A stretch of 64,000 nucleotides of DNA from the IMG/VR virus record IMGVR_UViG_3300042564_005549, positions 1 to 64,000 of that record; one strand, 5' to 3'. The first letter of the stretch is position 1. Each line of letters starts with the position of its first letter. The translations under genes were made by a program, and so were the position numbers. The notes beneath the pieces are model-generated. The model was not told where the DNA came from, searched no databases, and saw only the letters and a list, made by a program, of their open reading frames with translations. Positions 3,735 to 21,353 of this stretch are shown piece after piece. The stretch comes from a virus.

Positions 3735-6572
3735 ATGGCAAATTCAAACAAAGTATTCGTTTCTCCAGGTGTATATACGTCTGAGAAAGATTTAACATTT
3801 GTTGCACAAAGTGTCGGAGTAACAACATTAGGATTAGCAGGCGAAACTTTAAAAGGTCCAGCTTTCGAACCCGTATTGATTACAGATTTTGATGAATTCA
3901 AAACGTACTTTGGTCCAACATCACCTGAAAAATATGGTAATGGAAACCCAAAATATGAATTGGCATATGTGGCAAAGGCTTATTTACAAGAGTCTAACCA
4001 ATTATTCGTAACAAGAGTACTTGGATTAACAGGTTTCAAACCTAATAAAACATTCGGTATTAAAACTATTGCCGGTATCACTTGGGATTCTACAGAAACC
4101 CCTGTTGAGACTTCAGGAACTTTAATACCAACAGTAACAGGAATTACAGGAAGTACATTCTTCTCTGCGTTATCAGGTAAAACTGCTAGTACAGGTGATA
4201 GTGTTACTGACTTTATTGTTGACGGTTCATACTCTAATGGTGATTGGTTCACAATTGGTGTTGTTCCTGAAGATGATATTGCAACACAAACAGGTACTCA
4301 ATTAACTAGTCCATTAGGTGAATACACCAATCAAAACTGGTATAACACATACTACACAACAAGTGGTGGAAACGTTAACGGTTTATATTCTTACTTATTT
4401 AGTTATTCAGGAGCGTCTTCTACTTTCGTAGTAACAAGATACAACTATACAGGAACAACAAGTAACAGTTATGGTGATATCACAGTTGCGGCTTTAAGAC
4501 CTCGTGGTGGATACACAATGGAGTCATTAGATTTAGAAGTTACCACAAATGCTGGTTTCTTAATTAGTTCTGATACTTTAACCACAAATCCATTGGGTGA
4601 GTTTACAATTAATGTAACAGGTTCTACAAGTGGAGCAAAAGAATTTACTTGTTCTTTAGACACTACTTCTTCAAAATATATTACAAAAGTATTAGGTAAT
4701 GACGTATTTGACAAGAAACGTGATGAGATACCTGTATATGTTCACGAAGTTTACCCAACATTAATTAAGACATTATTTGAACAAGGTTTAATTCTTGGTT
4801 TAAGTTTGGATGAAGTTTACCACACAGTTGGAACTGACTTCGTTGGGGAATGGGATACACCAGCATCTCCGATGGTAGTTTCTGAAGTACGTGGTGGTAG
4901 AGTTTCTGACTTATTCCAAGTATTCACAGTTTCTGACGGTAACGCCGCTAACTATCAAGTGAAGATTACATTCCTTAACATTGATTTAGATACCGGTGAA
5001 TTTGATATTCTTGTTCGTGATTTCAACGATACTGACGATAATATGGTTGTATTGGAGAAATTTACAAGATGTACAATGGATTCAACATTACCAGGTTATG
5101 TAGCAAGAAAAGTTGGTACACAAGACGGTGAATATGAATTACGTTCAAAATACGTTATGTTAGTTATGGCTGACGAACACCCTGAAGATGCAATTCCTGC
5201 AGGTTTCAAAGGATTCGTTGCTGATAATTTAGCGAGTTCAACATCTGTAATAGGTGCTGTTAAATACAAAACACAATTCTTAGATGCGGGTGAAGAGACC
5301 GGTTCGTACTCATTAACAGGAGAACCAACATTATCAGCACAAGGAGATAAACCAAAGAAAACATCTTTAGGTCTATCATCACAAGTTGGTTTTGATAGTG
5401 ACTTATTAAAATACAAAGGTGTTGCACCTGATGCGGTAACTGTAGGTTTCCACTTATCATCTAATGCTTCTTCAATCACAGGTAATACAATCACTGGTAA
5501 AATGTTTGATTGTACACCATACGATTTAGAAGGTGTAAGTAAAGGTAAATTAGAAACAGTTGCATATCGTAAATTCACATTTGCAGTATGTGGTGGTTTC
5601 GATGGTTGGGACATTTATAGAAGTTCAAGAACTAACGGAGACGGTTATGTGTTCGGTAAAAGAACATATGTATCGGGACATACAACTAATAGTGGTGTGT
5701 TTAGTACTTCAGTTGGTAACTCTGACTATTATGCTTACTTAAAAGGAATTGAAACATATTCTAACCCTGAAGCTGTTGATATTAACATATTTGCAACTCC
5801 GGGTATCAATTTCGATGACCACAATTCTTTGGTAACTCAAACAATTGACATTATTGAAAACGATAGAGCGGATTCACTTTATATCATTAACTCACCAAAT
5901 GTTTCATCATCTGACGAAGTTACTGATTTATTAGACGGAGCAAACTTAGATAGTAACTATTCTGCAACATATTGGCCTTGGATTCAAGTTAGAGATAACG
6001 ACAATTCAACTCAATTATATCTACCACCAACAGGTGAGGTTGTAAGAAACATCGCATTAACTGATAATGTTTCTTATCCTTGGTTCGCGGTAGCAGGTTA
6101 TTCAAGAGGTTTGGTGAATTCAATCAAAGCTTTCAAAAAGTTAACTCTTGATGAAAGAGATTCACTTTACAAAAATAGAATTAACCCAATTGCAACATTC
6201 TCTGATACAGGTACAATTATCTGGGGTAACAAAACATTACAAGTTAGAGAATCTGCACTTGATAGAATTAACGTAAGAAGATTACTATTAAGAGCAAGAA
6301 AGTTAATTTCTGCAGTTGCTGTAAGATTATTGTTCGAACAAAATGACGAACAAGTAAGACAAGAATTCTTGAGATTGGTTAACCCAATTCTTGAATCAAT
6401 AAAGAAAGAAAGAGGTCTTTATGACTTTAGAGTATCAGTATCAAGTGACCCTGAGGACATTGATGCTAATACATTGAGAGGTAAGATTTACATCAAACCA
6501 ACTCGTTCTCTTGAATTTATTGATGTAGAATTCATTATTACACCAACAGGTGCTTCATTTGAGAATATCTAA
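3735..6572 (+). CDS. contractile tail sheath protein
   Basis: N-terminal SPGVYTSEKD; C-terminal YSATYWPW, PWFAVAG, INPI, IWGNKTL, RINVRRLL, IKPTRSLEFI. Confidence 0.97.
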   Translation: MANSNKVFVSPGVYTSEKDLTFVAQSVGVTTLGLAGETLKGPAFEPVLITDFDEFKTYFGPTSPEKYGNGNPKYELAYVAKAYLQESNQLFVTRVLGLTGFKPNKTFGIKTIAGITWDSTETPVETSGTLIPTVTGITGSTFFSALSGKTASTGDSVTDFIVDGSYSNGDWFTIGVVPEDDIATQTGTQLTSPLGEYTNQNWYNTYYTTSGGNVNGLYSYLFSYSGASSTFVVTRYNYTGTTSNSYGDITVAALRPRGGYTMESLDLEVTTNAGFLISSDTLTTNPLGEFTINVTGSTSGAKEFTCSLDTTSSKYITKVLGNDVFDKKRDEIPVYVHEVYPTLIKTLFEQGLILGLSLDEVYHTVGTDFVGEWDTPASPMVVSEVRGGRVSDLFQVFTVSDGNAANYQVKITFLNIDLDTGEFDILVRDFNDTDDNMVVLEKFTRCTMDSTLPGYVARKVGTQDGEYELRSKYVMLVMADEHPEDAIPAGFKGFVADNLASSTSVIGAVKYKTQFLDAGEETGSYSLTGEPTLSAQGDKPKKTSLGLSSQVGFDSDLLKYKGVAPDAVTVGFHLSSNASSITGNTITGKMFDCTPYDLEGVSKGKLETVAYRKFTFAVCGGFDGWDIYRSSRTNGDGYVFGKRTYVSGHTTNSGVFSTSVGNSDYYAYLKGIETYSNPEAVDINIFATPGINFDDHNSLVTQTIDIIENDRADSLYIINSPNVSSSDEVTDLLDGANLDSNYSATYWPWIQVRDNDNSTQLYLPPTGEVVRNIALTDNVSYPWFAVAGYSRGLVNSIKAFKKLTLDERDSLYKNRINPIATFSDTGTIIWGNKTLQVRESALDRINVRRLLLRARKLISAVAVRLLFEQNDEQVRQEFLRLVNPILESIKKERGLYDFRVSVSSDPEDIDANTLRGKIYIKPTRSLEFIDVEFIITPTGASFENI

Positions 6573-6666: not shown

Positions 6667-6917
6667 CAAAAATTTATAAAAATTATATCTTTATAAATTA
6701 CCCAGTATCTAGAACTAGTTGTTCTAGTATTTATTAATATATTATTAATAATCTAGTTCTTATTATGTTATTCTGGTGTCATACTGGAGCCTAGAGAAAA
6801 AATAAACAAAAAAAATGAGAAAATCAAGTCTCATCGAATAAATAAACGAAAAAAAACTATTTTCCAAATAGCACATATTTATAGGAAAGTAATAATTAAA
6901 AACTTAACAAATACAAA

Positions 6918-7406
6918 ATGGCAGATTTATTAATGAAAATGCCGGTTCCTTACGAACCGAAAAGACAGAACCGATTTATCCTAAGATTCCCTTCATCATT
7001 GGGTATCAATGAGTGGTATGTAACATCGGCTTCGAGACCTAAAGCAACAATTGCAGAAACTGAAATTCCTTTCTTAAATACATCAACATATGTTGCTGGT
7101 AGATTTAAATGGGAATCAATCTCAGTTAAATTTAAAGACCCTATTGGTCCTTCTGCAGCACAAGCATTAATGGAGTGGTTCCGTTTACACGCGGAGTCTG
7201 TTACAGGGCGTATGGGATACGCTGCTGGTTATAAAAAAGATATTGAACTTGAAATGTTAGACCCAACAGGTGTTGTGGTTGAAAAATGGATTCTTCAAGG
7301 TACATTCTTATCAGGATTGGATTTTGGTTCATTAGATTATAGCCAAGACGCTTTAGCTGATATCAGTGCTACGTTAAGAATGGATAGATGTATCCTTGTA
7401 TACTAA
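6918..7406 (+). CDS. tail tube protein (T4 gp19-like)
   Basis: 162 aa after the sheath. EPKRQNRF, GRFKWESI, GYKKDIELEMLDPTGVVVEKWILQG, LDYS. Confidence 0.9.
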   Translation: MADLLMKMPVPYEPKRQNRFILRFPSSLGINEWYVTSASRPKATIAETEIPFLNTSTYVAGRFKWESISVKFKDPIGPSAAQALMEWFRLHAESVTGRMGYAAGYKKDIELEMLDPTGVVVEKWILQGTFLSGLDFGSLDYSQDALADISATLRMDRCILVY

Positions 7407-7433
7407 TATTACAATAAACATAAAATCTGTCTT

Positions 7434-7465
7434 AAAGGTCCTCAAAAGGGACCTTTATTTTTTTT
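7434..7465 (+). terminator. rho-independent terminator after the tube gene
   Basis: AAAGGTCC-loop-GGACCTTT followed by a T tract. Confidence 0.8.
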
Positions 7466-7471
7466 ATAAAC

Positions 7472-7500
7472 TTTACTTTATTATACTTATAGTTTAAACT
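7472..7500 (+). promoter_or_regulatory. sigma70-like promoter candidate for the chaperone gene
   Basis: TTTACT-17 nt-TAAACT ending 6 nt before ATG 7507. Confidence 0.4.
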
Positions 7501-7506
7501 TACAAT

Positions 7507-8256
7507 ATGGAAGAATTGAGAATAGACCCAACAATTGCATACGACGTAGTTGAACTACCGAGTAGAGGTATATACTACCCAAACAATAAAAAATCCTTAA
7601 GGATTGCATATCTAACGGCTGCAGATGAAAATATTTTAGCGGCACCGAATTTAATACAAACAAATTCAATTGTTAGTGAATTATTGAAAAGAAAGGTGTT
7701 AGATAAAGATATCAACACTGATGATTTAGTGGAAGAAGATAAACAAGCGATTTTAATATTCTTAAGAAATACTTCATTTGGTACTGAATATAAAATGAAT
7801 ATCACAGACCCTAAAACAGGAGAAGTTTTTTCTCAAGTATTTGACTTATCAAGTGTAAAAATTAAAGACTTCAAGTTAGAACCAAATAGTGACGGAGAAT
7901 ATAGTTTCTATATGGAAAAAAGTAAGGCTGAAGTGACTTTTAAATTCTTGACACAAAAAAATCAAACAGAAATTGATAAAATCAGAGAGAGTTGGAATGG
8001 GATTGGTGCACCACCTATTATTACCAAACAACTTGAAATGATGATTAAATCTGTTGGTGGAATTAAAGACCAAATGCAGATTAGACATTTCATTGATAGA
8101 ATGCCAATAAAGGATTCTCAAGATTTTAGAAAATTCATTTCAGAAAATAAACCAAGTTTAGATTTAACACAAACAGTAACTACCCCGTCAGGAGAGACAA
8201 CCCAAGTTGAAATCGGGTTCGGGGTTGAGTTTTTTCGCCCTTTCTACGGAATATAA
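7507..8256 (+). CDS. tail assembly chaperone / T4 gp26-like hub assembly protein
   Basis: Between tube and tape measure. VELPSRG, LTAADENIL, DLVEEDKQAILIFLR, C-terminal FGVEFF. Confidence 0.75.
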   Translation: MEELRIDPTIAYDVVELPSRGIYYPNNKKSLRIAYLTAADENILAAPNLIQTNSIVSELLKRKVLDKDINTDDLVEEDKQAILIFLRNTSFGTEYKMNITDPKTGEVFSQVFDLSSVKIKDFKLEPNSDGEYSFYMEKSKAEVTFKFLTQKNQTEIDKIRESWNGIGAPPIITKQLEMMIKSVGGIKDQMQIRHFIDRMPIKDSQDFRKFISENKPSLDLTQTVTTPSGETTQVEIGFGVEFFRPFYGI

Positions 8257-8263
8257 GAAAGGA

Positions 8264-8386
8264 ATGCTAGACGAGATTTTATTTTTAATTAAACGAGGTT
8301 TCTCGTATTCAGATTTAATTTCAATGCCTGTCTATGTAAGAAGATACTATATTAACTACTTATTAGAAATAGAATCTGATAACTAA
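8264..8386 (+). CDS. small gp51-like / chaperone T segment (40 aa), possibly fused to the upstream chaperone by frameshift
   Basis: Not in the track. MLDEILFLIKRGFSYSDLISMPVYVRRYYINYLLEIESDN. Its frame stays open back through the T6 run at 8230-8235. Confidence 0.7.
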   Translation: MLDEILFLIKRGFSYSDLISMPVYVRRYYINYLLEIESDN

Positions 8387-8400
8387 TCTATTTATATAGT

Positions 8401-10323
8401 ATGGCGGCACTTAACATTTCAAATAGAGCAAAAGATTTTGCATATAGAAAAAAATACAATGATTTCTTTTCTCAAGTAGTTAGTGATAATCCTGGTATTA
8501 ATACTAACCAATCTTCGGTTAAACAAGATATTGATAACCAATACAACGCCCTTAGTAGTAAAGAACCTGAAAGTGTCGGTGCAAGTACATCCAAACCAAC
8601 AACAGATGGTGGAATTGTTGGTGGAATTTCGGCGGGATTGAAGGCTATGGGTAGTTCATCTACTCGATATGAACAAGGTGAAAATTTTGGAGTTCAATCC
8701 GGATTAAACGCAATATTCGATTCGACAACGGGAAAATTAAAAACCACCGAAGAAATATTCAAAGGTATTAGAAGTACCATAGGTGAAGGAATTGTCCTTC
8801 AACTAAAACAACAGTCAGAGTTACAAGAAAAAATCAATACAGAGACTGCTATGACCGGACAATTGTCCGAGGATTTTAGAAGTTCAATTACTGAATCATA
8901 TCCAAGTGCAATTAGATTAGGTATTTCTTTTGAAGAACTAGCCACTGCAATTTCTGATATGACAACAGATATGGGTAGGTTTAGACTTTTAAACACCCAA
9001 ACAATGGTCGATGTCCAAGAAACGGGAAAAGTTTATTTTTCTAATATGAGAGAGGCTGGATTGGCCGCAAATGCTTTTTCAAATGTTTCGTTAGGTGCTC
9101 GTGATTCAATGTTAGCAATACAAGAGGCTGGTAAATCATCTTTAGAGTTAGGTTTAAACGCTAGAACTACCACAACAACTTTAGTACAAAATATCGATAA
9201 ATTAAATCAATACGGATTTAAAAATGGTATTAATGGACTTAACAGTATGGTTCAAAAAGCACAACAATTAAAAATGGATATGCAAAGTGTGTTCACACTT
9301 GCTGAGAAGGTTATGGACCCTGAAGGTGCGTTATCATTGGCTGCTAATCTTCAAGCAATTGGAGGTGTTATGGGTAGTTTTAATGACCCAATTAAAATGA
9401 TGTACGATGCAACAAATAATGTTGAAGATTTACAAGATTCATTAATTGGTGCTGCGGAATCTTTAGCAACATACAATAGTGAACAAGGAAGGTTTGAAGT
9501 TACAGGTGCTAATTTGAGAAAAGCACAAGCGATGGCTAAAGAGTTAGGTATATCATACTCTGAATTGACAAAACTTTCAGTACAGGCGGCACAAAGAAGT
9601 TCTGCGGCTGCAGATTTAATGGCTGCGGGATTATCGTTTAATAATGAAGAAGATAAGGAATTCTTAACCAATTTAGCCCAAATGAAAGACGGTAAAATGG
9701 TTATTGAAGTTCCTAAAAATTTACAAGAAAAATTAGGGGCTACTGAGGTTGCGTTAGAAACTATGTCAGAAGACCAAAAGAAAAACTTATTAGCATATAG
9801 AGAAGAATTTAAACAACTATCAACAGAAGATATTGCAAAAAAACAAGTTAGTTTAGTTGAAAATATTAATAGAGATGTTAATTTTTTAGCTGCGGTTGCT
9901 AGAATACAGGCAGGAGGAGTTGGTGAAACCGCGGTAAAGGCTTTAGGATTTGACCCTGCTAAGATTATTAAAGAATCGACAAATTTGTCAAATAAAGCAG
10001 CTGCGGGTATTGAAAAGACTGGAGAATTTTTAAAAGACGGTATTAATAGTGTTTTAAATGTTGAGGGTAGAAAGAAAGCTCAAAGTCAAGCCCAACCTCA
10101 AACTTCACTTGGTGATAAAGCAGCAGAAGCGGAAAAGGCTAAAGCGGAGGCTGAAAAAGCTAAGACACAAACTCAACCATCCAACAATCAACCACAAAAA
10201 ACAGTAAGATTTGAGGTTGTTTCCGATGTTAAAGCAGATGAAATATCGAGGTCTATTATGAGAAATCCTGAAATGGCTAGTCAATTCTTCGATAAGTGGA
10301 ACGATTATACCTCAAATCAATAA
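8401..10323 (+). CDS. tape measure protein
   Basis: 640 aa, Ala/Gln/Leu-rich helical sequence directly after the chaperone locus. Confidence 0.75.
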   Translation: MAALNISNRAKDFAYRKKYNDFFSQVVSDNPGINTNQSSVKQDIDNQYNALSSKEPESVGASTSKPTTDGGIVGGISAGLKAMGSSSTRYEQGENFGVQSGLNAIFDSTTGKLKTTEEIFKGIRSTIGEGIVLQLKQQSELQEKINTETAMTGQLSEDFRSSITESYPSAIRLGISFEELATAISDMTTDMGRFRLLNTQTMVDVQETGKVYFSNMREAGLAANAFSNVSLGARDSMLAIQEAGKSSLELGLNARTTTTTLVQNIDKLNQYGFKNGINGLNSMVQKAQQLKMDMQSVFTLAEKVMDPEGALSLAANLQAIGGVMGSFNDPIKMMYDATNNVEDLQDSLIGAAESLATYNSEQGRFEVTGANLRKAQAMAKELGISYSELTKLSVQAAQRSSAAADLMAAGLSFNNEEDKEFLTNLAQMKDGKMVIEVPKNLQEKLGATEVALETMSEDQKKNLLAYREEFKQLSTEDIAKKQVSLVENINRDVNFLAAVARIQAGGVGETAVKALGFDPAKIIKESTNLSNKAAAGIEKTGEFLKDGINSVLNVEGRKKAQSQAQPQTSLGDKAAEAEKAKAEAEKAKTQTQPSNNQPQKTVRFEVVSDVKADEISRSIMRNPEMASQFFDKWNDYTSNQ

Positions 10324-10367
10324 TTAAATTTTTAACAAACACCTATTTATAGGTAAACAAATATATA

Positions 10368-13300
10368 ATGCCAAGCTACGTAGATTTTGATTCAACTAAA
10401 AGATTTAGGGATTACATATTAGGTAAGAATCTTTCATCACCTAATGGTCCACAAACCTTTAATGCAAGTTCATTTTCAGTTCAAAATCTAAGTGATGTTT
10501 CAGTACCTGATTTAGGTAATGTAGAAACAGAAAGAGACCTTAATTTACCACAAACCCAAAAATTAAACATATTCAAACCTATTGAATATTTTGTTAGGGA
10601 AACTTTAGATAATATTCCAAGGAGAGCTAATTTAGCGTTATATCCTTATTTTAGAGGAGGACAAGACTATAACATTATTAGTATAATGTCAACAAGTAAC
10701 TATGATACTGAATCTGAGTTATTTAAATTTGCCGCTAATAATATTAAAAACAATCCTAACGGACCTGTTTTTGCAAGAATCCAACAAAATTTATATGCTG
10801 CAACTGTTGGTAGAGTAAGATTAATTGATGCGTTACAAGGTAATTCTACAACTGCAATAAATTTAATTACAGGTAGAGAACCATTAGTTGAATATAATAA
10901 CAAGATAACAGTTGCAAAAACATTGGCGGGTAAAGCTGTTGATTTTTTACAAACAGTTTCAGGTGTTGAATTTCCTTTTAGTGAAGTACCGGGTGATTAT
11001 TTAACCAACCCAAGAAATCCTGTAAATGTAAGACCTGTTGCACAGAATGAAGCACAAGCGATACTGCAAGATGTTACAGGTGCTATTGGTTCGTTGATTG
11101 GAATAGAAAGAAGACCAAAGGCATCAAGAAAACCTTCAGATTTATTCATTGAATATATGGGTGAAGGTCAAAGACAAAGATTATATGATTTATTATCATA
11201 TTCAAAATATGCACCAAATTACACAACAACCGCGAGGTCTCAACAATCGTCTAAAATATTTTCATTTGTTGATAAAGTTGCGTCAGGTGTAAAAAACTTA
11301 TTAGGGTTAGAAGCACCAAAAGGACAAGCATACATTGGTGATGACAGAGGTAATGACGTTAAGTACGCAATGAATGATTTTAACGACAGACCTGTAAGAA
11401 GTAGTTTTTATTTATCATCAATGTTTGACCCAATTCAAGCGGGTTTATTTGAACGTAAAAGAAATATTACAGAAGGTGGACCAATTGCGGGTAAGTTAAC
11501 TTGGATTAGTCAAAAATCAACAAATAGAATCGGTGCAAATAATAAAGAATTTGCAACCGAACAATCACAATACACGGGAACCCTATCAACAAATTTTAGA
11601 TTTAGAGATGATTCTATTTTAGGAGTTACACAAGATTTACTTAACACATTACCATTTAATGGTGGTGAACAAAAGAGACACGTTGCGAATGTTATTGACC
11701 AAACAAGTAGAGTCTTTAGAGATGGTAACGTTACTATGTCAAGAGGTTCTAATGTGAAGTATGTTAATATGTATTCGGGTGAAGAGAGTGGTGTTGAATA
11801 TTGTAGAGTATGGACCAAAGATAGGTCACATATGAACTATTCCGACACAATGAAAAGAACTGGTCTTATTAGAAAATATAATTCTTCAGTTTTATCAACA
11901 CCGTACAATTTAAACATATATCCAAATTCAGACGGTAAATCATCATTTGATGGTTCAACAAATATCGTTAAAGGTAATGGTGGATTTTATGCTAAGAAAT
12001 ATATGTTCTCAATTGAGAACCTTGCTTGGAAAACATCTAACATACCGGGTTTTACTTACAATGATTTACCTTATTGTGAAAGAGGACCAAATGGTGGTCG
12101 TGTTATGTGGTTTCCACCATATGATTTAAAAGTTAGTGAACAAAATAGTGCTAAATGGGAAGAGAATACTTTCTTAGGTAGACCTGAACCAATTTACACA
12201 TATCAAAACACAACAAGAAATGGTAGTGTGTCATTCAAAATTGTTGTTGACCACCCAAGTATTTTAAATTTATTAGTTAGAGAACACTTCAAAGGAATGT
12301 CTGATGAAGAAGCTGACAACTATATTCACGCATTTTTTGCGGGTTGTGAAGATTTAGATTTCTATTCATTGATTAGAAAATACACAACACTTGAACAAAG
12401 TGATATTCAGAAAATTCAAGCATACCTATCATATTCAACTGACCCTAAAGTTATTGAGAAAGTTAAAACAATTACAGACCCGGTTAAGGATTTAACCGTA
12501 CCACAAGTACCAGGTTCAACACCAACTAAAGGAGGTACTTCTGAAAATAATACAGCAGGAGGACCAATTGCTAAAAAGTTTATGTTATTTTTCAAAAATG
12601 ACTTTCCAAAGAAGGATGACAAAAATGAATTAGATGGTTTAAAATATGGAACATTATATGAATCATATAATAGAAGTCAATATATCGATGAATTAACTCA
12701 AGGTTTATTAACAAACGATGATGCGTTATTCAACCCAAGTCACGCTTGGGGACCAAAGAGTCAAAACGATTATAAAATATTATACGGAGAAGAAAGTAAA
12801 ACAAGACCTGATAACGCTAAAATTGCGGAACTAACAGGTAAAACAATATCAGAAATTAATAAAGGTTTTGATACACTTGATGTTACTTATAGTGGATTCA
12901 CACAACAAGTTACTGAACTAAAAGGTTTATTAAAAGATAAAAAAGTACAAACAATAAAATTATCAATTCAAGCATCAACATCTTTTGTCGCTGATGATAC
13001 GTATAATTTGAAATTATCATACAGAAGAAGTTCAAGTATTATAAAACAATTTTTAGAAGGGGTTGCCGGAGAAGGTGCTAAACCTGAAAAATTAAAAGTT
13101 AATTGGAAAACATCTGCGGTTAATGAAAAGGACAAAGCAAAGACCGAAACTTTAGACGCTATTAGTTTTAGAGATTTAGGTTATGATTATGATGGTGAAA
13201 TTAGATTTAATTTTATTGCTAATAGAGGTGAACAATTCACTGCACAAGTTTCTCCCGATAAGAATCTTAATTGCCATAATCTTGAAATAAAAAGTAACCT

Positions 13301-15188
13301 TAAATTAAAACGTACCGCACCTGTAACATTTTATTGTAGAGAGGCAACTCTTGGTGTTGAGTATTCAACAAAACCAGCGGAGAACCCAACACCAACACCT
13401 CCACCGCCAGGAATTATTCCAAACATTACTATTCCAACGGTAAATGTTATACCGGTTATTGAACAAGGTAAAAAAGAACAACCACCACTTGACGAATTAA
13501 AAAGAATTATAATGAAGACTTTGGGTGAATGTTATTACTTCAAACAATTAGAAGAAACATCACCTATAGCATTTAGTTCATTAAAAGAGAAATTAAAATA
13601 TTTTCATCCGGGATTCCACTCAACAACTCCTGAAGGATTAAACGCACGTTTAACTTTCGTACAACAATGTATTAGACCGGGAGATACTATTCCTATTAAA
13701 GGAATAAATGATGAGACGGATTTACCTGCGAGAAATACAACATTCGGACCACCACCAATTTGTATTATGAGAATTGGTGATTTTTACCATTCTAAAATTA
13801 TTATTAGAGACGTAAACATTGCGTTCGAGAACTCAACTTGGGACCTAAACCCCGAAGGAATTGGTATTCAACCAATGATTGCCGACGTAACGCTACAAGT
13901 TAGTTTTATTGGTGGTCACGGAATGGAGAAACCTGTTGAAAGATTACAAAACGCTTTATCATCAAACTTCTATGCAAATACTGAAGTATATGATTACAGA
14001 GCAACCGCAACAGAAGATAGAAGAAAGTTCAATAAAGAAGAACTTGAAAAACTATCAGGTATCAGAACACCAAATCCAACAACGTTGGCTCCAATACCCC
14101 CAAGTCCTGAAAGTGCGAACAATGTGAGTAGAGGACAATATCTCGGTGAAATATCGGGTAAAACCTTAAATTATGATAAATTGATAAAGAATGTGTTTAC
14201 CTACACAACAATTTATTATGATACCTACGACCAAGCGATTAAAAGTATTACTAAAAAATATGGTAATAAAATTGCAAGTGTATTCTTTTCACCAACATAT
14301 AGAGAAGTTAAAGATTATGTAATTAAAAAGGTTGATAATAGTAACAATGTTACAGATTTAACTGTACAATTATTTGGACAACATAAAAGTCCTTCAAAAT
14401 TAACAAACAATACCATTTCAGTATTTAGAATTAAAATGAAGGATAAACTTGCAAGTACAAATATTACAACGATGTTTGGAATTGACGAAGTTTTAAATAA
14501 ACCATTAACTGATTATACTGAAACATATTTAAAACCAATTATTGCAGATGAATTAAACAAAGTATTACAGGAAGCTGCGGAAGATAAAACGGCAATTGAG
14601 TTAGAATCTAAGAGAAATCAATTAATTGACAACTTAGATAAACTTAGTTATGTTATTAGTACAACTCACGATGGTAAAATTTTAGAAGGTAACGTATTTT
14701 CAGGAGCAACGTTCGATTATGCATCACCAACAGGTTTTACCAAAAACAAGATTTATAGTCAATATGAAAAATGTGTTGATTATATCCAAAAGTATGACCA
14801 AGTAATGTTAGCGGATATTGATAGTTCATTAGTTTTCGGTAGAGAAATGACATTAAGTGACGATAACTTTAAAGAATTTGTTAGTTTATTATTATTTAGT
14901 AAAAAACAAGTTCTTTTAGATACACTAACCAAAAAAGATTCCGTAAATTTTAATGAAGGGGTAATAAAAACTATTGACAAGAAACTAACTAAGTTTTTTG
15001 TGGAACCAAAAGTGATAAATGTTAAACTTGGAAAATATCCAGAACCCAAAAATACGAACAAAGTTGAATTCCAAATAGTTAACGAAGATTTTGTAATCAC
15101 AGGGGAGGATAAATCTAATTTAATAAAACTACATTCCGCAGATACAAGATTAGGGGATAAATTAAACTACTATAGAAAGAAAAAATGA
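10368..15188 (+). CDS. large baseplate/tail-tube-initiator-like structural protein
   Basis: 1606 aa. FLGRPEPIYTYQNTTR and PPICIMRIGDFY segments resemble tube-initiator (gp48/54-like) folds. Follows the tape measure. Confidence 0.55.
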   Translation: MPSYVDFDSTKRFRDYILGKNLSSPNGPQTFNASSFSVQNLSDVSVPDLGNVETERDLNLPQTQKLNIFKPIEYFVRETLDNIPRRANLALYPYFRGGQDYNIISIMSTSNYDTESELFKFAANNIKNNPNGPVFARIQQNLYAATVGRVRLIDALQGNSTTAINLITGREPLVEYNNKITVAKTLAGKAVDFLQTVSGVEFPFSEVPGDYLTNPRNPVNVRPVAQNEAQAILQDVTGAIGSLIGIERRPKASRKPSDLFIEYMGEGQRQRLYDLLSYSKYAPNYTTTARSQQSSKIFSFVDKVASGVKNLLGLEAPKGQAYIGDDRGNDVKYAMNDFNDRPVRSSFYLSSMFDPIQAGLFERKRNITEGGPIAGKLTWISQKSTNRIGANNKEFATEQSQYTGTLSTNFRFRDDSILGVTQDLLNTLPFNGGEQKRHVANVIDQTSRVFRDGNVTMSRGSNVKYVNMYSGEESGVEYCRVWTKDRSHMNYSDTMKRTGLIRKYNSSVLSTPYNLNIYPNSDGKSSFDGSTNIVKGNGGFYAKKYMFSIENLAWKTSNIPGFTYNDLPYCERGPNGGRVMWFPPYDLKVSEQNSAKWEENTFLGRPEPIYTYQNTTRNGSVSFKIVVDHPSILNLLVREHFKGMSDEEADNYIHAFFAGCEDLDFYSLIRKYTTLEQSDIQKIQAYLSYSTDPKVIEKVKTITDPVKDLTVPQVPGSTPTKGGTSENNTAGGPIAKKFMLFFKNDFPKKDDKNELDGLKYGTLYESYNRSQYIDELTQGLLTNDDALFNPSHAWGPKSQNDYKILYGEESKTRPDNAKIAELTGKTISEINKGFDTLDVTYSGFTQQVTELKGLLKDKKVQTIKLSIQASTSFVADDTYNLKLSYRRSSSIIKQFLEGVAGEGAKPEKLKVNWKTSAVNEKDKAKTETLDAISFRDLGYDYDGEIRFNFIANRGEQFTAQVSPDKNLNCHNLEIKSNLKLKRTAPVTFYCREATLGVEYSTKPAENPTPTPPPPGIIPNITIPTVNVIPVIEQGKKEQPPLDELKRIIMKTLGECYYFKQLEETSPIAFSSLKEKLKYFHPGFHSTTPEGLNARLTFVQQCIRPGDTIPIKGINDETDLPARNTTFGPPPICIMRIGDFYHSKIIIRDVNIAFENSTWDLNPEGIGIQPMIADVTLQVSFIGGHGMEKPVERLQNALSSNFYANTEVYDYRATATEDRRKFNKEELEKLSGIRTPNPTTLAPIPPSPESANNVSRGQYLGEISGKTLNYDKLIKNVFTYTTIYYDTYDQAIKSITKKYGNKIASVFFSPTYREVKDYVIKKVDNSNNVTDLTVQLFGQHKSPSKLTNNTISVFRIKMKDKLASTNITTMFGIDEVLNKPLTDYTETYLKPIIADELNKVLQEAAEDKTAIELESKRNQLIDNLDKLSYVISTTHDGKILEGNVFSGATFDYASPTGFTKNKIYSQYEKCVDYIQKYDQVMLADIDSSLVFGREMTLSDDNFKEFVSLLLFSKKQVLLDTLTKKDSVNFNEGVIKTIDKKLTKFFVEPKVINVKLGKYPEPKNTNKVEFQIVNEDFVITGEDKSNLIKLHSADTRLGDKLNYYRKKK

Positions 15189-15508
15189 GTAACCAATATT
15201 TTGATAGATACCAATATTTTATAGACGACGGTAGTTTTAAGATAGTACCCGGCATTGAAATACCAATTAAGTCTACGGACAAATACTTTCAATATAAAAA
15301 AGGTAAGGATAGACTTGATAAAGCGTCACAGGAATATTATGGAACACCGTATTTTGGTTGGTTAATTATGTTAGCGAACCCAATGGCGGGTAGTGTTGAA
15401 TTTGAAATTCAAGATAATTTTATAATTAGAGTTCCATTTCCATTAGTAACGACTTTACAAGACTATAAAAGAGGAATAGAATTGTATAAGTTATACTATG
15501 GCGAGTAA
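15185..15508 (+). CDS. LysM-like baseplate wedge protein (gp53/gpX-like)
   Basis: KDRLDKASQEYYGTPYFGWLIMLANP...IIRVP. Confidence 0.75.
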   Translation: MSNQYFDRYQYFIDDGSFKIVPGIEIPIKSTDKYFQYKKGKDRLDKASQEYYGTPYFGWLIMLANPMAGSVEFEIQDNFIIRVPFPLVTTLQDYKRGIELYKLYYGE

Positions 15509-18500
15509 AAAAGGAAACACAAACGATATATTAGTTAAGGTCGACCAAAACAATTTAATGTACATCGACCCTAATAGTGTCGTATCTGATGGTCAGGTTT
15601 TAATGAGAGAAAGTAAACCTGAAGAACTTGTTATGTATGTTAACTTGGAAGCGGATTTAATTCCAAGAACCACATTAGTAACAGGTAACGAAGCCAGTAC
15701 TCTAACCTCAATAGCTAAAGGTACATTTAATTTAATGCGAAATGCGGAAGGTAGAGACTTTGATTCTAAATGGACTGATGCCTATACTGAGTATGACCAA
15801 AAAACAAAAAAAGATAAAGACGGAAATCAAATACCAACCGGTCAATTTTATCAATTTGATAGTACCGCACAAAGTTTTGGTATTGATAGTATAAGTATTC
15901 AAATTCAAGGTGTGAATGTTATTCCACAAGTCAATATTAAATTTATTGATGTTAGGGGTAAAACATTATTTGAATCACCTGAAAATTCCCCATATAAAGC
16001 ATTCTTCCATTTACCTTGGCCAATATTTTATTTAACTATAAAAGGTTTTTATGGAAAGGCAATTAGATACAGACTTCACTTAGTAAAATTCAACTCAAGG
16101 TTTAACTCTGGAAATGGTAACTTCGAAGTTGACACAACTTTTGTTGGTTCAACATATGCTTATTTAAATGACATTCCATTGGATGGAATAATGGAAGCAC
16201 CGTATATGTTCCCAATTGAAAGTATCAAAGACGGTAAGTTCAATGAGAAGACAAAAAAATATGAAAAGGTAATTAAAAAAACAAGTAGAGGTTTAACAGT
16301 ATTAAAATCAGTTTATTCTGAGTATAGACAAAAAGGATTACTACCAAAAACATTTCCCGATAAAACACTTAGGGAAGTGATAAAGATTGCACAAAGGTTA
16401 GAAACAATATTGGAAGAAGAAATTTTTTCAAAAACCGCTGACCCTAAAGTATTAAATGGTATTCGTGAATTCGATAACATATTAAAGAACTTTGAAAAGG
16501 CTTTAGTTTCTTGGAAGTCAAAAAATTTAAGTGCAGAATTTTTTAGAAAAGAACCAAATGAAAGTATAGAATGGAACGTACTTTTGGAAAAAAGTAAACC
16601 AGCAACCAGTTTAGCAACATTAACGGGTTCAACACCAGGTACTTTAGAACTCTTGATTAAAACAAATATCCAATCAATGGATAATAATCAGGCGTTTGGT
16701 AAAAATAGAGACGTTAAATTATTAAAAGATAAAACGATTAACACGAGAACAATTTCAGGAGACGCTTTACTTAACTTAAAGAATTTCTATAAAGTTGACT
16801 CTAAGATTGGTGTTGATATTAATGGTATGTTACAAACATTGTACACCATTCAAAAAGATTATATCGAAGAAAGAAACAAACTTGAACAACTGATTGAGAA
16901 AAAAATGAACGATATCATCAAACGAAGAGATATCGGAATTGGGTTTGAACCCACAATTCGAAATGTTGTTGGTTTAATTTTAGCAAACGCAGACACATAT
17001 ATTCGTTTATTAAAAGATACACATTATAAAGCATTCCAAGTTGCCGAACAAAGGAAAGATATTTTAAATTCAGTATCGACAGATAGTGTTGGCGAATCTA
17101 TATATCCTTGGCCGGAAGTTAAAAAACCTGCAACAGGTAAAAAACAAAACGTTTTAGAATATCCGGGTTCATTTGAAATGGCAAAGAAATTACAGAGCTA
17201 TGATAAGAAATTATGGCCTGAAGTTGATTTTGTTGAAAACTATCACGCAGTCTCAACAAAGAAAATTGAACCCAACGATTCAAATGAGAATGGTCCCGAT
17301 TTAATTGATTATACCACCAACAATGATTCTGAATCATTACAGAAACGAGACATTAGTATGTTAACGTATCTGAATGGTGCAATTCCATATGACGATAAAT
17401 CAATATCGTCAATTTTATATGAGATATGGGAAAGAGCAACGTATGTAACAACTATTGATTCATTTAATAATAATACGATTCAAGAATTAGCATTATTAGA
17501 ATTCGACAACATTAAAAATAGAGTTGCTGAAGATTTTGATATTATTGAGGTTTTAAAAACATCAGTAAGAAATACTGAAGAGCTAAAAAAATATATGTTA
17601 GGTTTTTCTGCATATGAAAGATACCCATATTATGAAGACCAACTTCCAACTATTCCTTACATTAGAGAATCTTTGGAATCTGATTTCAAAATTGAGAAAT
17701 ATGTACCGAAAAACAAATCATTATCAAACAACAGGTACTACCCTAATTTAGCTCAAAATTTAATTAATTATATTGGAGAGGAATATAGAGTAAATCTTTA
17801 TCCATTCAATTCAACAGAATATAGTAATTTCTTATCACCATCTGGTTACACAAAAAATCAGATACACCTAAAAGGTATGGTAAGATTAAACACAACTGAA
17901 GATTTTATTTCATCACCAATCGAACCCGAAATGTGGGTGTGGTCGGATGAAGTTGAATATGTTGTTGACATATCAGGAAGTACAGGAAGAAATACGAGAA
18001 AAGGTAGAAACTTATTTGACAATCATATTAGTTTCGATACCATCGATTATCAAGGTGCACCAACCACCGAATTAAGAATGATGATTAATACTCCGTATTT
18101 CCATAAACAATTATATAACGACTATCAAAATAGAAAATCTAAGGGAAGATTTGCAGGTTCTGCTTACTTACTTTTAAACCAATTAAATTTCAAAGATTTA
18201 TCACATCAATTAACTGATAAGGTAAATCAAATTTTACAGGCAGTATCTCACATTCCACAAGATGGTGTATTAATGTCTTCAATGTTTAGAGAACTTGGAG
18301 CATCACACTATGTTCCGTATCATTTAGTACTAAAATGGGGAGCATTGTATCATAGATACAAAAGACATATATTAGAAGGTGTTGATATTTTATCAGGTAT
18401 CACAGAACCTATTAACACAAAGTTATTTTATGACCTTAATTTAGATAGAACATATACTTTGCCATTTACAGGTAGACAAGGAACCACAAGTATTAATATC

Positions 18501-21353
18501 TATAGAGGAGCAAATCCAAATAGTCAATATGGTTTCTTCCCGTATTATCATTCTATATTTCATCAAATAGCGAATGATTATACTTTTTATAATCCATTTG
18601 CAACCACAGGAAATACGATGTATACTGAAATGGTAGATAAAGGTGTTGTAAAACCAATTTTTAAAATTGGGGGTGACGGAGGATGGAGTTGGAGTGTTAT
18701 GGTTGATAACTCTAAATTCGATTCAAAAGACCAAAGATATACGTTATTACCGGGTTCAGGACACATCTATTCAAATATGTCCACAACCGGATATAGTAGA
18801 AATGAACAAGACAATTTTAAAACTTATTGGTCAAACTATGACCAAATTTATATGGGTAATGAATCACCACTTTATAGTGGAGAAACATTTAATCCATCGA
18901 CCCAATATATGGTAAGTAAAAAGAATTGGTTACCAACTTTATCATCCAACAATAGAAAAATTATAGATTTGATTGCAACATTCAAACCTGAAATTTTAGA
19001 TGAGTTTGAAGATATGTTCCTTGAATTTGCGTCAGATACATTAAATGAAGAAGTTCCACAATCAAAATACAACTTCAAGTACAATACATTTAAGAAAATG
19101 CTCAAGGAGATTGTATCAGTTCCGAAATATTCGACCGATACATTTGACACTGTCAGTACTATGAATGACTTTATGATGAATATCTATTGGAGACAAAAAG
19201 AAAAATTATTCCAAATCTCTAATGACATTTTAAGTAATGACAACTTAGTTAAGATAACTTTATCAAATCCAAAGGAAATCAATGCTCACGTATTAGGTGG
19301 ATTCGCACAGGCAAACGTTGAGAGATTCTCAACGGGTGAAGACTTCGATGCCGGACAAATCAATACTGAAACACAAAATTATATAAAACTATATCTCGGA
19401 GAAGATATGGACAATTACTATGAGGATTTCTTCAGGTATAATAATGTTGAGTTAAGTGTTGATAACATTAAAAGATTTAGATTTTTAATTTACATATATG
19501 CTGGATTTAGAAAGGCCGGTAACGGAATAAGTAAAGCTGACTTTGTGAATTATTTAAGAAACAATATCATATTAAAAGATTCGGACCCCGTATCAAAAGT
19601 TGGGGGACAAGCAAACAGACTAGGTTTATTTTTAAAAGTATTGATTAGTCGATTTAACACACTTAAAGCGGACAATGTTGAACAAAGATTAAAAATAGAC
19701 AGAGGTTATAATGATGATATAATTAAATTAGAATTATACAACTTCTTCAAATCGTTTAACGATAAATGGGTTGCAGGTAACTCAATTGGACAAAGAAATT
19801 TATTAGAGGAATTTTTATTCTTGGATAAAGCTAATGTCGATATTGGTGACTCGGTTTATATTGATATTAAAAAATTAATTGAGATTGGCGACCAAAGAAA
19901 CTCTAAGAAACAAAATTTATATGGAACCATCTCAAATTTAATATCGAGAACCGGTTTCGATATGAGAGCAATGCCAGCTTATATTAATTTCTACGGAACG
20001 AACTATAACAACAAAGCAAAAATAACTCCGTCAAAAACGGTTGCAAAAAATATATTCGGAACTTTCTTGGAGGTTGATTATCAGGATTCATCACCTAAAA
20101 TCATTTTACAATATACAGGACCAACTTCAAAATATTTGGAGATGAGTGAAGTGAATAAAAAAATGATGTTTAAGGACGATAGTTTTAATATTCAACAACC
20201 AAATAACAATCCGGTATTAGTTGCTCCCGAAGTATTCAACACAATCGATTTCTTTAAATCAAATAAAGCGGTTGCGTTTGAGGTTAGTTTTGGTGACCAA
20301 AACCAAGGAATATTCAAGGGGATTGAATTAAATCAGTCTTCAGTTAAAAATACATCCGAATCATTTGCGGTGTTAGAAAGATTAGGTGCTAGTGAAACAG
20401 GTTCAAGTACTGCACAGGTGGATATTGGGTTGTTTGACATTTATAGGTCACAGTCCTACACTTGTGATGTTACTATGATGGGTAATGTAATGATTCAACC
20501 TACAATGTACTTCTATCTTAAAAACATACCATTATTTAGAGGAACATATTGGATTCAAGAGGTTACACACAGTATTAGAAATAACACCATTGAAACAACC
20601 TTCAAGGGTACAAGAATACCTATTACTTCACTCCCTGACCCTAAAGACTCGTTTATGGCAAGTTATAGAGCGTTGTTTGATAAAATGGTTGCTAAGGCGG
20701 TGGCCAAAGTTAAAGATGAAAATCAAAAACTTGCAAATAAAACTAATAACGAAAAAGTAGTACAGGATAATAAAGGTAACACTTACGTTTATGACCCGGG
20801 TACTAAAACGGTTAGTGGTGAAAAAATAATTGAGAACGCTTCATCTACTCCATATGGTATTTCATATAATGGATTTAAGAATGAGAAGTATGTTCAATTA
20901 GTAAAATACAATGATGAAGAGTGGTTAAGAGGTAATGTTGTGACTATGGGAGGTACTAATTACCCAATTGGTAATGATATTGACTTAGGATTTGTTAGTA
21001 GATATGAATTTACATCGGGAAGTACGAAAACTAGTAGTAGAGTTAAATGGGTTGAGGTTAGTCCAAACTCAGATAAAGATATGTTCTATTCAACTAAATT
21101 CTTATTTGATAGTGTACTCACACCTAATACAATTTTAGAGGGTTCACCTAAAACTGAATTCTTTAATCCTGACCCTAAGAAAAATAAGAAATATACACTC
21201 GGATATAGTTACAATTTCGATACAAGAAGATTCGTCGGACCTGTTAACACAGGACCTGCAGATATACCTTATGGTATAGGTATGTCTAAAGCATTAATGA
21301 AAGAACTTGATTTATATGATGGAGATATTGTTTATTTCCGATTAATAAAATAG
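15498..21353 (+). CDS. very large baseplate hub protein (gp27/gpD-like C-terminal part)
   Basis: 1951 aa. YTCDVTMMGNVMIQPTMYFYL...GTYWIQEVTHSI...TTFKGTR is hub/late-control-D-like. Follows the LysM gene. Confidence 0.6.
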   Translation: MASKKGNTNDILVKVDQNNLMYIDPNSVVSDGQVLMRESKPEELVMYVNLEADLIPRTTLVTGNEASTLTSIAKGTFNLMRNAEGRDFDSKWTDAYTEYDQKTKKDKDGNQIPTGQFYQFDSTAQSFGIDSISIQIQGVNVIPQVNIKFIDVRGKTLFESPENSPYKAFFHLPWPIFYLTIKGFYGKAIRYRLHLVKFNSRFNSGNGNFEVDTTFVGSTYAYLNDIPLDGIMEAPYMFPIESIKDGKFNEKTKKYEKVIKKTSRGLTVLKSVYSEYRQKGLLPKTFPDKTLREVIKIAQRLETILEEEIFSKTADPKVLNGIREFDNILKNFEKALVSWKSKNLSAEFFRKEPNESIEWNVLLEKSKPATSLATLTGSTPGTLELLIKTNIQSMDNNQAFGKNRDVKLLKDKTINTRTISGDALLNLKNFYKVDSKIGVDINGMLQTLYTIQKDYIEERNKLEQLIEKKMNDIIKRRDIGIGFEPTIRNVVGLILANADTYIRLLKDTHYKAFQVAEQRKDILNSVSTDSVGESIYPWPEVKKPATGKKQNVLEYPGSFEMAKKLQSYDKKLWPEVDFVENYHAVSTKKIEPNDSNENGPDLIDYTTNNDSESLQKRDISMLTYLNGAIPYDDKSISSILYEIWERATYVTTIDSFNNNTIQELALLEFDNIKNRVAEDFDIIEVLKTSVRNTEELKKYMLGFSAYERYPYYEDQLPTIPYIRESLESDFKIEKYVPKNKSLSNNRYYPNLAQNLINYIGEEYRVNLYPFNSTEYSNFLSPSGYTKNQIHLKGMVRLNTTEDFISSPIEPEMWVWSDEVEYVVDISGSTGRNTRKGRNLFDNHISFDTIDYQGAPTTELRMMINTPYFHKQLYNDYQNRKSKGRFAGSAYLLLNQLNFKDLSHQLTDKVNQILQAVSHIPQDGVLMSSMFRELGASHYVPYHLVLKWGALYHRYKRHILEGVDILSGITEPINTKLFYDLNLDRTYTLPFTGRQGTTSINIYRGANPNSQYGFFPYYHSIFHQIANDYTFYNPFATTGNTMYTEMVDKGVVKPIFKIGGDGGWSWSVMVDNSKFDSKDQRYTLLPGSGHIYSNMSTTGYSRNEQDNFKTYWSNYDQIYMGNESPLYSGETFNPSTQYMVSKKNWLPTLSSNNRKIIDLIATFKPEILDEFEDMFLEFASDTLNEEVPQSKYNFKYNTFKKMLKEIVSVPKYSTDTFDTVSTMNDFMMNIYWRQKEKLFQISNDILSNDNLVKITLSNPKEINAHVLGGFAQANVERFSTGEDFDAGQINTETQNYIKLYLGEDMDNYYEDFFRYNNVELSVDNIKRFRFLIYIYAGFRKAGNGISKADFVNYLRNNIILKDSDPVSKVGGQANRLGLFLKVLISRFNTLKADNVEQRLKIDRGYNDDIIKLELYNFFKSFNDKWVAGNSIGQRNLLEEFLFLDKANVDIGDSVYIDIKKLIEIGDQRNSKKQNLYGTISNLISRTGFDMRAMPAYINFYGTNYNNKAKITPSKTVAKNIFGTFLEVDYQDSSPKIILQYTGPTSKYLEMSEVNKKMMFKDDSFNIQQPNNNPVLVAPEVFNTIDFFKSNKAVAFEVSFGDQNQGIFKGIELNQSSVKNTSESFAVLERLGASETGSSTAQVDIGLFDIYRSQSYTCDVTMMGNVMIQPTMYFYLKNIPLFRGTYWIQEVTHSIRNNTIETTFKGTRIPITSLPDPKDSFMASYRALFDKMVAKAVAKVKDENQKLANKTNNEKVVQDNKGNTYVYDPGTKTVSGEKIIENASSTPYGISYNGFKNEKYVQLVKYNDEEWLRGNVVTMGGTNYPIGNDIDLGFVSRYEFTSGSTKTSSRVKWVEVSPNSDKDMFYSTKFLFDSVLTPNTILEGSPKTEFFNPDPKKNKKYTLGYSYNFDTRRFVGPVNTGPADIPYGIGMSKALMKELDLYDGDIVYFRLIK

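Follow-up and report, generated by a model that had tools for sequence, protein, structure and literature searches.

How can a phage that carries one chaperone gene of the T4 gp26/gp51 family provide both a short and a long form of that chaperone? The question is raised by a 64,000-nt stretch of viral DNA (IMG/VR record IMGVR_UViG_3300042564_005549, positions 1 to 64,000; hereafter the window), in which the gene for a 249-aa protein overlaps at its 3' end a second open reading frame (ORF) in the +1 frame. A first-pass annotation of the window had placed a tail chaperone here and had suggested that ribosomes enter the +1 frame at UUU_CGC. Are the two frames joined in one protein, and if so, by what route? 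The arrangement proves to be shared by close and distant relatives. The best explanation of the locus as a whole, to which we give a probability of about 0.8 on the evidence of sequence comparison, would be a programmed +1 ribosomal frameshift that yields a short and a long tail assembly chaperone (TAC), designated TAC-N and TAC-NC.

Anatomy of the overlap

The zero frame of the chaperone gene ends GAG TTT TTT CGC CCT TTC TAC GGA ATA TAA at 8227-8256 (GAG 8227, TTT 8230, TTT 8233, CGC 8236). The -1 frame is shut by TAG 8268-8270, 14 nt past the zero-frame stop, and the +1 frame is open from 8183 to TAA 8384-8386, reading ...SFFALSTEYKKGMLDEILFLIKRGFSYSDLISMP...; each of the sequence statements of the first-pass annotation on these frames is borne out. 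Its description of CGC as rare likewise holds: among the 18,631 codons of the window's 35 long ORFs (33.5% G+C), CGC occurs twice (0.11 per 1000), once at the proposed shift site. Arg is encoded mostly by AGA, and the only codon rarer than CGC is CGG (0). The shift site is also the only in-frame TTT-CGN within the window. The window is part of an 81.7-kb viral record; while CGG is absent from the window's long ORFs, there are two in the remainder of that record.

Identity of the short form

Judged by profile matches and position, the gene is a tail-assembly-chaperone-type gene, as the first-pass annotation had supposed. It is of the PF12322 family and lies between the tail tube gene and a presumed tape-measure gene. 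The 249-aa protein matches Pfam PF12322 (T4_baseplate) with 42.1 bits (gathering cut-off 24.5), residues 25-243 aligning with profile positions 10-218 of 219, and also matches phrog_150, "baseplate hub" (E 6e-14). T4 gp51 matches both profiles at full length (177.5 bits for PF12322), and the annotation of T4 gp26 assigns it to this family too. Modelled with AlphaFold2 (predicted local distance difference test score, pLDDT, 86; predicted template modelling score, pTM, 0.80), the 249-aa protein retrieved 66 Foldseek matches in BFVD at E <= 1e-3 with TM-scores of up to 0.86; these are named "baseplate hub subunit/assembly protein" or gp26 and come from many myophages. Neither sequence searches nor Foldseek identified a relative of the protein among solved structures.

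The T4 proteins gp26 and gp51, together with homologues from Streptococcus, Listeria, and Bacillus phages, carry two CxxC pairs of a zinc ribbon at aligned positions. These four cysteines are absent from the window protein and its lineage; in the window, DPKTGEV and TPSGETT (window 7780-7830 and 8175-8200, residues ~100-108 and ~225-232) take the place of CPxC...CxxC in Streptococcus phage GXN1, Listeria phage LIS04, and Bacillus phage HSE3. The lineages of Flavobacterium phage immuto and Microcystis phage Mel-JY01 likewise lack them. The CxxC pairs are not a Pfam criterion for PF12322. The AlphaFold2 model of the window protein stays confident at the cysteine-less sites.

Coding constraint in the +1 frame

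Close relatives were taken from IMG/VR as 80 loci with 67-100% identity in the 249-aa protein. All 80 keep GAR TTY TTT CGY CCT TTC TAY and an open +1 frame, whose product follows the consensus [SN]FF[AV]LS[TM]xYKKxQLDEILFL[IV]K[RK]GFSYGD..MP....R[RK]YY.... Two of them (L082 and L083) have TTC TTT CGC, so that the T6 run is broken and TTT_C is kept. For the 40 distinct sequences among the close relatives, the ratio of nonsynonymous to synonymous polymorphism (pN/pS) past the zero-frame stop is 0.21 in the +1 frame and 1.04 and 2.73 in the other frames. In the start-less part of the +1 frame (21 codons, preceding the first conserved Met), it is 0.18, compared to 0.31 in the gene body. The +1 frame is under purifying selection.

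The overlap itself is constrained in a manner that bears on where the +1 frame is entered. Between GGGGT and TCTA just four positions vary among the 40 sequences, all of them zero-frame third positions. The third positions of CCT and TTC are invariant, and these are the second positions of the Leu and Ser codons of the +1 frame, which indicates that +1 translation begins at or before the codon after CGC. Other changes in the overlap that fall on +1-frame second positions bring about Ala/Val or Thr/Met switches only. The limit on the other side is set by a +1-frame TAG that is present two codons upstream of the site in about half of the close relatives. Together with the zero-frame stop, it confines the change of frame to the final 26 nt of the gene, AG TTT TTT CGC CCT TTC TAY GGN NTA TAA.

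Could the +1 frame instead be a separate small gene, starting at ATG 8264 (40 aa) or at TTG 8207 (59 aa), with its own initiation or with termination-reinitiation, and never fused to the chaperone? The ATG of the window lies 8 nt past the zero-frame stop and is preceded by AAGGA. Gene callers usually do call such short ORFs, and GenBank records annotate small ORFs at the extension. The ATG is, however, private to the window's subclade: in every relative outside it (all relatives at <=77% identity), the codon encodes Gln (CAA/CAG). The AAGGA belongs to the codons of a conserved Lys-Lys-Gly and stops 1 nt short of the ATG. In seven distinct relatives (L030, L035, L048, L052, L072, L075, and L077) the +1-frame TAG precedes the shift codon by two codons and an ATG, GTG, or TTG is first reached 30 codons downstream, leaving 29 conserved codons without a canonical start. 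In phage immuto, the first +1-frame Met lies behind the conserved core. Moreover, the purifying selection spans the start-less part, and natural in-frame fusions exist, as described below. We therefore consider a separate gene very unlikely. The first-pass annotation had set its frameshift against independent initiation at 8264, and had proposed as a check the conservation in relatives of TTTTTT-CG and of the +1 frame ahead of that ATG. The check is positive: the upstream peptide is conserved, the Met is not, and some relatives are without any start codon. By these alignments, the second ORF overlaps the 3' end of the chaperone gene, has no start codon of its own, and is conserved as a protein.

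The extension and the predicted fused product

The predicted TAC-NC has 292 aa, comprising 243 residues shared with TAC-N and a 49-residue extension. AlphaFold2 models the extension alone as a compact three-helix unit (pLDDT 90). The last helix of the TAC-N model ends at residues 240-243 (VEFF), which would place the shift at a domain boundary.

Searching 1.84 billion representative proteins with a profile of the extension gave 1139 clusters at E <= 1e-3. Among the best 150 matches, which were inspected, 146 are short called ORFs of 50-134 aa. The other four are proteins of 308-313 aa (P0338, P0348, P0351, and P0360) with PF12322 at the N terminus, that is, natural in-frame fusions like T4 gp51. 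The in-frame fusions read through ...IFGLSAENK... and ...VFGISSKDK..., and this junction matches the one predicted across the frames (...FF|GLS... in Mel-JY01, ...FF|ALS... in the window). Scans with P0348 and P0338 gave only more loci of the +1 type. With the fused product of the window, the phrog_150 match grows from residues 15-244 to 15-273. An hhalign comparison of the extension profile with a T4-type gp51 profile aligned it with gp51 residues 219-245, colinear and weak (P = 0.022 and 0.071); neither BLASTP nor hhalign yielded a useful match when the single fused product was compared with T4 gp51 or with its profile. For gp51 homologues, the database assigns the C-terminus to the Pfam family PF28602.

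A relative of 288 kb, judged 92% complete (G001, locus L092), contains one PF12322 gene only and no separate gp51-like gene. The long form, if needed, must consequently come from this locus. Taking these observations together with the constraint on the overlap, we regard it as very likely that a long chaperone is made across the two frames by recoding at this site.

Conservation in distant lineages

A hidden Markov model of the extension was applied to more distant loci, of which 163 could be evaluated, from three lineages (immuto-like, Mel-JY01-like, and HSE3-like). In all 163 the extension domain lies in the +1 frame, and the same holds for six further phage records read by hand. The motifs at the site are TTT_TTT_TGG_CCT at 113 of these loci, NNC_TTT_CTT_TGG at 34, and several minor forms, including TTT_CGT. 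The sites of individual phages are AGC TTT CTT TGG in immuto, TTT TTT TGG in Mel-JY01, TTC TTT CGT CCC in both GXN1 and HSE3, TTT TTT AGT in LIS04, and AAC TTT CTA TTC in a 484-kb uncultured phage. In every distant lineage examined, the zero frame ends a few residues past ...[EN]F[FL]... and is followed by the conserved +1 C-terminal domain; in a GC-richer lineage (L274) the short form ends AEFFYPR. Most lineages have in common an in-frame TTT with C or T as the next base. This comparative evidence supports the candidate slip put forward in the first-pass annotation, of tRNA-Phe from UUU to UUC.

The first-pass annotation had named a -2 shift on the T6 run as its alternative, in which tRNA-Phe slips back two bases on U6 and one extra Phe is inserted at the junction. 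A -2 shift leads to the same frame as a +1 shift, the window and most close relatives have T6, and U6 runs can support -2 shifts (PMC3458567). The arrangement is nevertheless kept where T6 is absent: not only in L082 and L083 (TTC TTT CGC) and in GXN1 and HSE3 (TTC TTT CGT), but also at the NNC TTT CTT TGG sites and in LR756508 (AAC TTT CTA). At such sites the landing codon of a -2 shift would not pair, and RNA folding found none of the downstream structures by which -2 shifts are driven. The -2 alternative is accordingly disfavored, and we think it very improbable.

The homopolymer run at the window site would also permit slippage of RNA polymerase on T6, with some mRNAs one U short and encoding the fusion directly. 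Six T residues are short for productive slippage, and several lineages have just three T at the site, making this explanation extremely unlikely. A special tRNA with an enlarged anticodon loop that reads four bases, UUUC or CGCC, as one codon would fit with the many tRNAs carried by giant lake phages, but is barely credible here. The 81.7-kb record has no tRNA, all 23 tRNAs of G001 have ordinary three-base anticodons, and a search of the 81.7-kb record found zero genes broken at CGG. Furthermore, the residue after the shift varies, Ala from CGCC and Val from CGTC, so that a CGYC reader would be ambiguous. Finally, although homopolymer runs are prone to sequencing error, the idea of an assembly error or a decaying pseudogene is refuted for practical purposes by the comparative data: the same arrangement is present in more than 240 independently assembled loci and in genomes of cultured phages, contigs from four independent lake metagenomes show zero indels in the T run at the site, and both frames are under purifying selection.

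In the same four metagenomes, many otherwise diverged contigs match just the ~40 nt at window 8221-8260. The summed contig depth there climbs from ~6 to 80-209, with loose ends on both sides, and several contigs start or end beside this segment. The frameshift cassette is thus a nucleotide island common to many co-occurring phage lineages.

None of the GenBank records inspected, among them those of immuto, Mel-JY01, LIS04, and HSE3, annotates a joined or frameshifted gene. The extension appears there as a truncated small hypothetical ORF or is left blank (L001 4741-5004, L002 4728-4964, L085 3720-3951, L086 3711-3904).

Proposed mechanism

From the comparisons we infer the ribosomal nature of the shift, its exact codon, its frequency, and the roles of the two proteins, and we propose the following sequence of events. 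The majority of ribosomes would read 7507-8256 in frame and release the 249-aa TAC-N. In a minority, the A site would present CGC, a very rare Arg codon, and the ribosome would pause while its P-site tRNA-Phe (anticodon GAA) is paired with UUU 8233-8235. The tRNA-Phe could then re-pair one base forward on UUC, whereby a G:U wobble would be replaced by a G:C pair. Translation would resume in the +1 frame with GCC (Ala) and run to 8383 to give the 292-aa TAC-NC. By analogy with lambda G/GT, and with T4 gp26/gp51 in the interpretation given by others, TAC-N and TAC-NC may both form a coat on the tape measure protein, and recruitment of the tail tube protein may fall to the additional domain of TAC-NC. 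That the recoding is specifically a +1 slip of tRNA-Phe at UUU_CGC is, in our assessment, probable.

Several observations weigh against this proposal. RNAalifold and single-sequence folding found no conserved downstream RNA structure (fold against shuffled sequences, z = -0.35). Only one conserved hairpin was predicted; it contains the site itself, and its pairs do not covary. Many relatives have CGT as the Arg codon of the site, and CGT is only moderately rare (3.4-4.0 per 1000); UGG, the A-site codon of other relatives, occurs at 8-11 per 1000. G001 contains in-frame TTT_CGT five times in other long ORFs, and this tetranucleotide alone can therefore not drive efficient shifting. Hunger at a CGY codon would moreover be relieved in G001 by the tRNA-Arg(ACG) that this relative encodes. 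Three sites do not fit re-pairing from UUU to UUY, namely that of LIS04 (TTT TTT AGT) and those of two IMG/VR relatives of HSE3, L188 (TTA TTT AAT CCC) and L192 (TTA TTC AAT CCC AGT, with no TTT); in these lineages the shift may take place on a neighboring codon such as CCC_A. Some independent initiation is possible at the ATG 8264 of the window. Finally, the identity of the tape-measure gene is by position only. Its 640-aa ORF occupies the slot of the annotated tape-measure genes in immuto, LIS04, and HSE3, and the protein has no family match and no significant similarity to the immuto tape-measure protein.

The first 5.5 kb of G001 contain its 23 tRNA genes, including Phe(GAA), Arg(ACG), Arg(TCT), Trp(CCA), and three Met(CAT), whereas ARAGORN found zero tRNA in the 81.7-kb record. 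The shift could be modulated by the phage's supply of tRNA-Arg(ACG).

We also considered avoidance of the codon pair. Before CGN elsewhere, Phe is encoded by TTT 7 times and by TTC 11 times, with fewer TTT than expected (binomial p = 0.0025). We do not count this as specific because TTT is depleted before any codon that starts with C (33 compared to 66 expected).

Relation to known systems

The tail assembly chaperones gpG and gpGT of phage lambda, and the conservation of their frameshift, were described by Levin et al. 1993 and Xu, Hendrix and Duda 2004 (reviewed in PMC5009743). As in lambda, the gene in the window lies just upstream of the tape-measure gene (presumed here), the two products share their N-terminal part, the second ORF lacks its own start, and the short form has the recoding site at its 3' end. 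The roles presumed for the two forms would correspond as well: coating of the tape measure by the short form, and recruitment of the tube by the extra domain of the long one. In pairs of the lambda type, the two products are made in a fixed ratio, tail assembly depends on both, and the virion contains neither. By contrast, the shift in the window is +1 rather than -1, and there is no X_XXY_YYZ heptamer. The window protein has ~250 aa and belongs to PF12322, not to the lambda G family, and its source is an uncultured giant contractile-tailed phage.

T4 gp26 (208 aa) and gp51 (249 aa), chaperones of baseplate-hub assembly, are the relatives within the family, as both share PF12322 and phrog_150 with the window protein. 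The end of gp26, ...KEFFELL, stands at the position of ...VEFF in the window, and the C-terminal segment of gp51 aligns weakly with the +1 extension. In T4, however, the two forms come from paralogous genes that do not overlap (gene 25 directly follows gene 26), whereas the window and G001 have one gene and a +1 extension. According to PMC10885494 and PMC12846349, Vladimirov, Gautam and Davidson 2022 identified T4 gp26/gp51 as TAC-N/TAC-NC made from two genes and not by frameshifting. The latter paper, from 2025, also credits Vladimirov et al. with poly-T -1 signals in "TAC-N genes of T4-like phages." Our search of the open-access literature found no paper on a +1 shift in the gp26/gp51 family, the 2022 work being known to us via the papers that cite it.

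With regard to the slip itself, the first-pass annotation had drawn a comparison with PA-X of influenza A virus, which fits at the level of the motif. There, UUU_CGY directs +1 frameshifting at UCC_UUU_CGU with no evident stimulatory structure (Firth et al. 2012, in PMC5009743). The window site is similar in that pairing at the P-site UUU can move to UUC, the CGY Arg codon that comes next is rare, and no stimulatory RNA structure is evident. The resemblance is one of mechanism only, since PA-X involves a eukaryotic ribosome and an unrelated gene, and its shifting is very low. The tsh genes of Listeria phages PSA, A118, and A500 use the +1 site CCC_UGA (PMC5009743). As in these genes and in prfB, the P-site tRNA at the window site would re-pair one base forward while the A site fills slowly. 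There the slow A-site codon is a stop, whereas here it would be a sense codon, CGY or UGG. The +1 site of Escherichia coli prfB is CUU_UGA. An upstream Shine-Dalgarno-like element is added in prfB; in the window's family, no correctly spaced element of this type is conserved across lineages.

It is possible, although we advance it only tentatively, that a forward slip of one base on a Phe codon (UUU with C or U after it), where the domain ends in ...EFF, is the prevalent, and perhaps the ancestral, route to the long form in gp26/gp51 chaperones of large contractile-tailed phages. Its frequency might then be set by the phage supply of tRNA-Arg(ACG) and tRNA-Phe(GAA). If this is correct, the slip would extend over more than 1000 clusters at 50% identity, from phages of Flavobacterium, of the cyanobacterium Microcystis, and of the Firmicutes Bacillus, Listeria, and Streptococcus to many uncultured giants. 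Among natural families of +1 frameshifting, it would rank with the largest known from viruses of prokaryotes, and the two-gene solution of T4 would be a derived state. To our knowledge, bacteria and their viruses have provided only a few well-documented +1 frameshifts: prfB, sites of the Listeria phage PSA type, and a handful more. Prediction of such sites has been difficult: PRFect predicted 0 of 481 forward shifts correctly (PMC10885494). As a natural system, the family would lend itself to the study of P-site slippage in bacterial ribosomes, with hundreds of variants (UUU_CGY, UUU_UGG, UUU_CUU) and with cultured representatives in immuto, Mel-JY01, HSE3, and LIS04. It would also tie the T4 gp26/gp51 "baseplate hub" family to the chaperone rule of lambda G/GT. 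The annotation of many phage genomes, in which the extension is absent or called a hypothetical small ORF, would be corrected.

Gene neighborhood and source

The features of the locus and its neighbors are given in Table 1.

Table 1. Positions in the window of the proposed frameshift site, the two chaperone reading frames, and adjacent tail genes
Feature	Position	Strand	Remarks
Proposed +1 shift site UUU_CGC	8233..8238	+	P-site UUU 8233-8235 to UUC 8234-8236; CGC 8236-8238 in A site
Zero-frame stop TAA	8254..8256	+	Inside the +1-frame codons TAT AAG (Tyr-Lys)
+1-frame extension	8237..8386	+	49 codons (A244-N292 of the predicted 292-aa TAC-NC) and stop TAA 8384-8386
ATG in the +1 frame	8264..8266	+	Private to the window's subclade; not a conserved start
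Island of near-invariant nucleotides around the shift site	8221..8260	+	Coding in two frames
Short chaperone form (TAC-N)	7507..8256	+	249 aa; T4 gp26/gp51 family; zero-frame end ...GVEFFRPFYGI
Tail sheath gene	3735..6572	+	945 aa; phrog_23 E 6e-63; PF04984 and PF17482
Tail tube gene	6918..7406	+	162 aa; phrog_4542 E 6e-25; weak PF06841 (T4 gp19) match under cut-off
Presumed tape measure protein	8401..10323	+	640 aa; assigned by position and synteny only

The completeness of the 81.7-kb record was judged to be 24%, corresponding to a phage of ~340 kb. A blastn search of window 6900-10400 in distant mode against phage records gave no match. The stretch is present in lake and freshwater metagenomes of at least 15 studies.

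Three very large ORFs are located at 10368-15188 (1606 aa), 15498-21353 (1951 aa), and 41685-47510 (1941 aa). The 1606-aa ORF had no significant match in PHROGs, Pfam, or NCBIfam. By their position, all three presumably encode baseplate or tail-fiber proteins.

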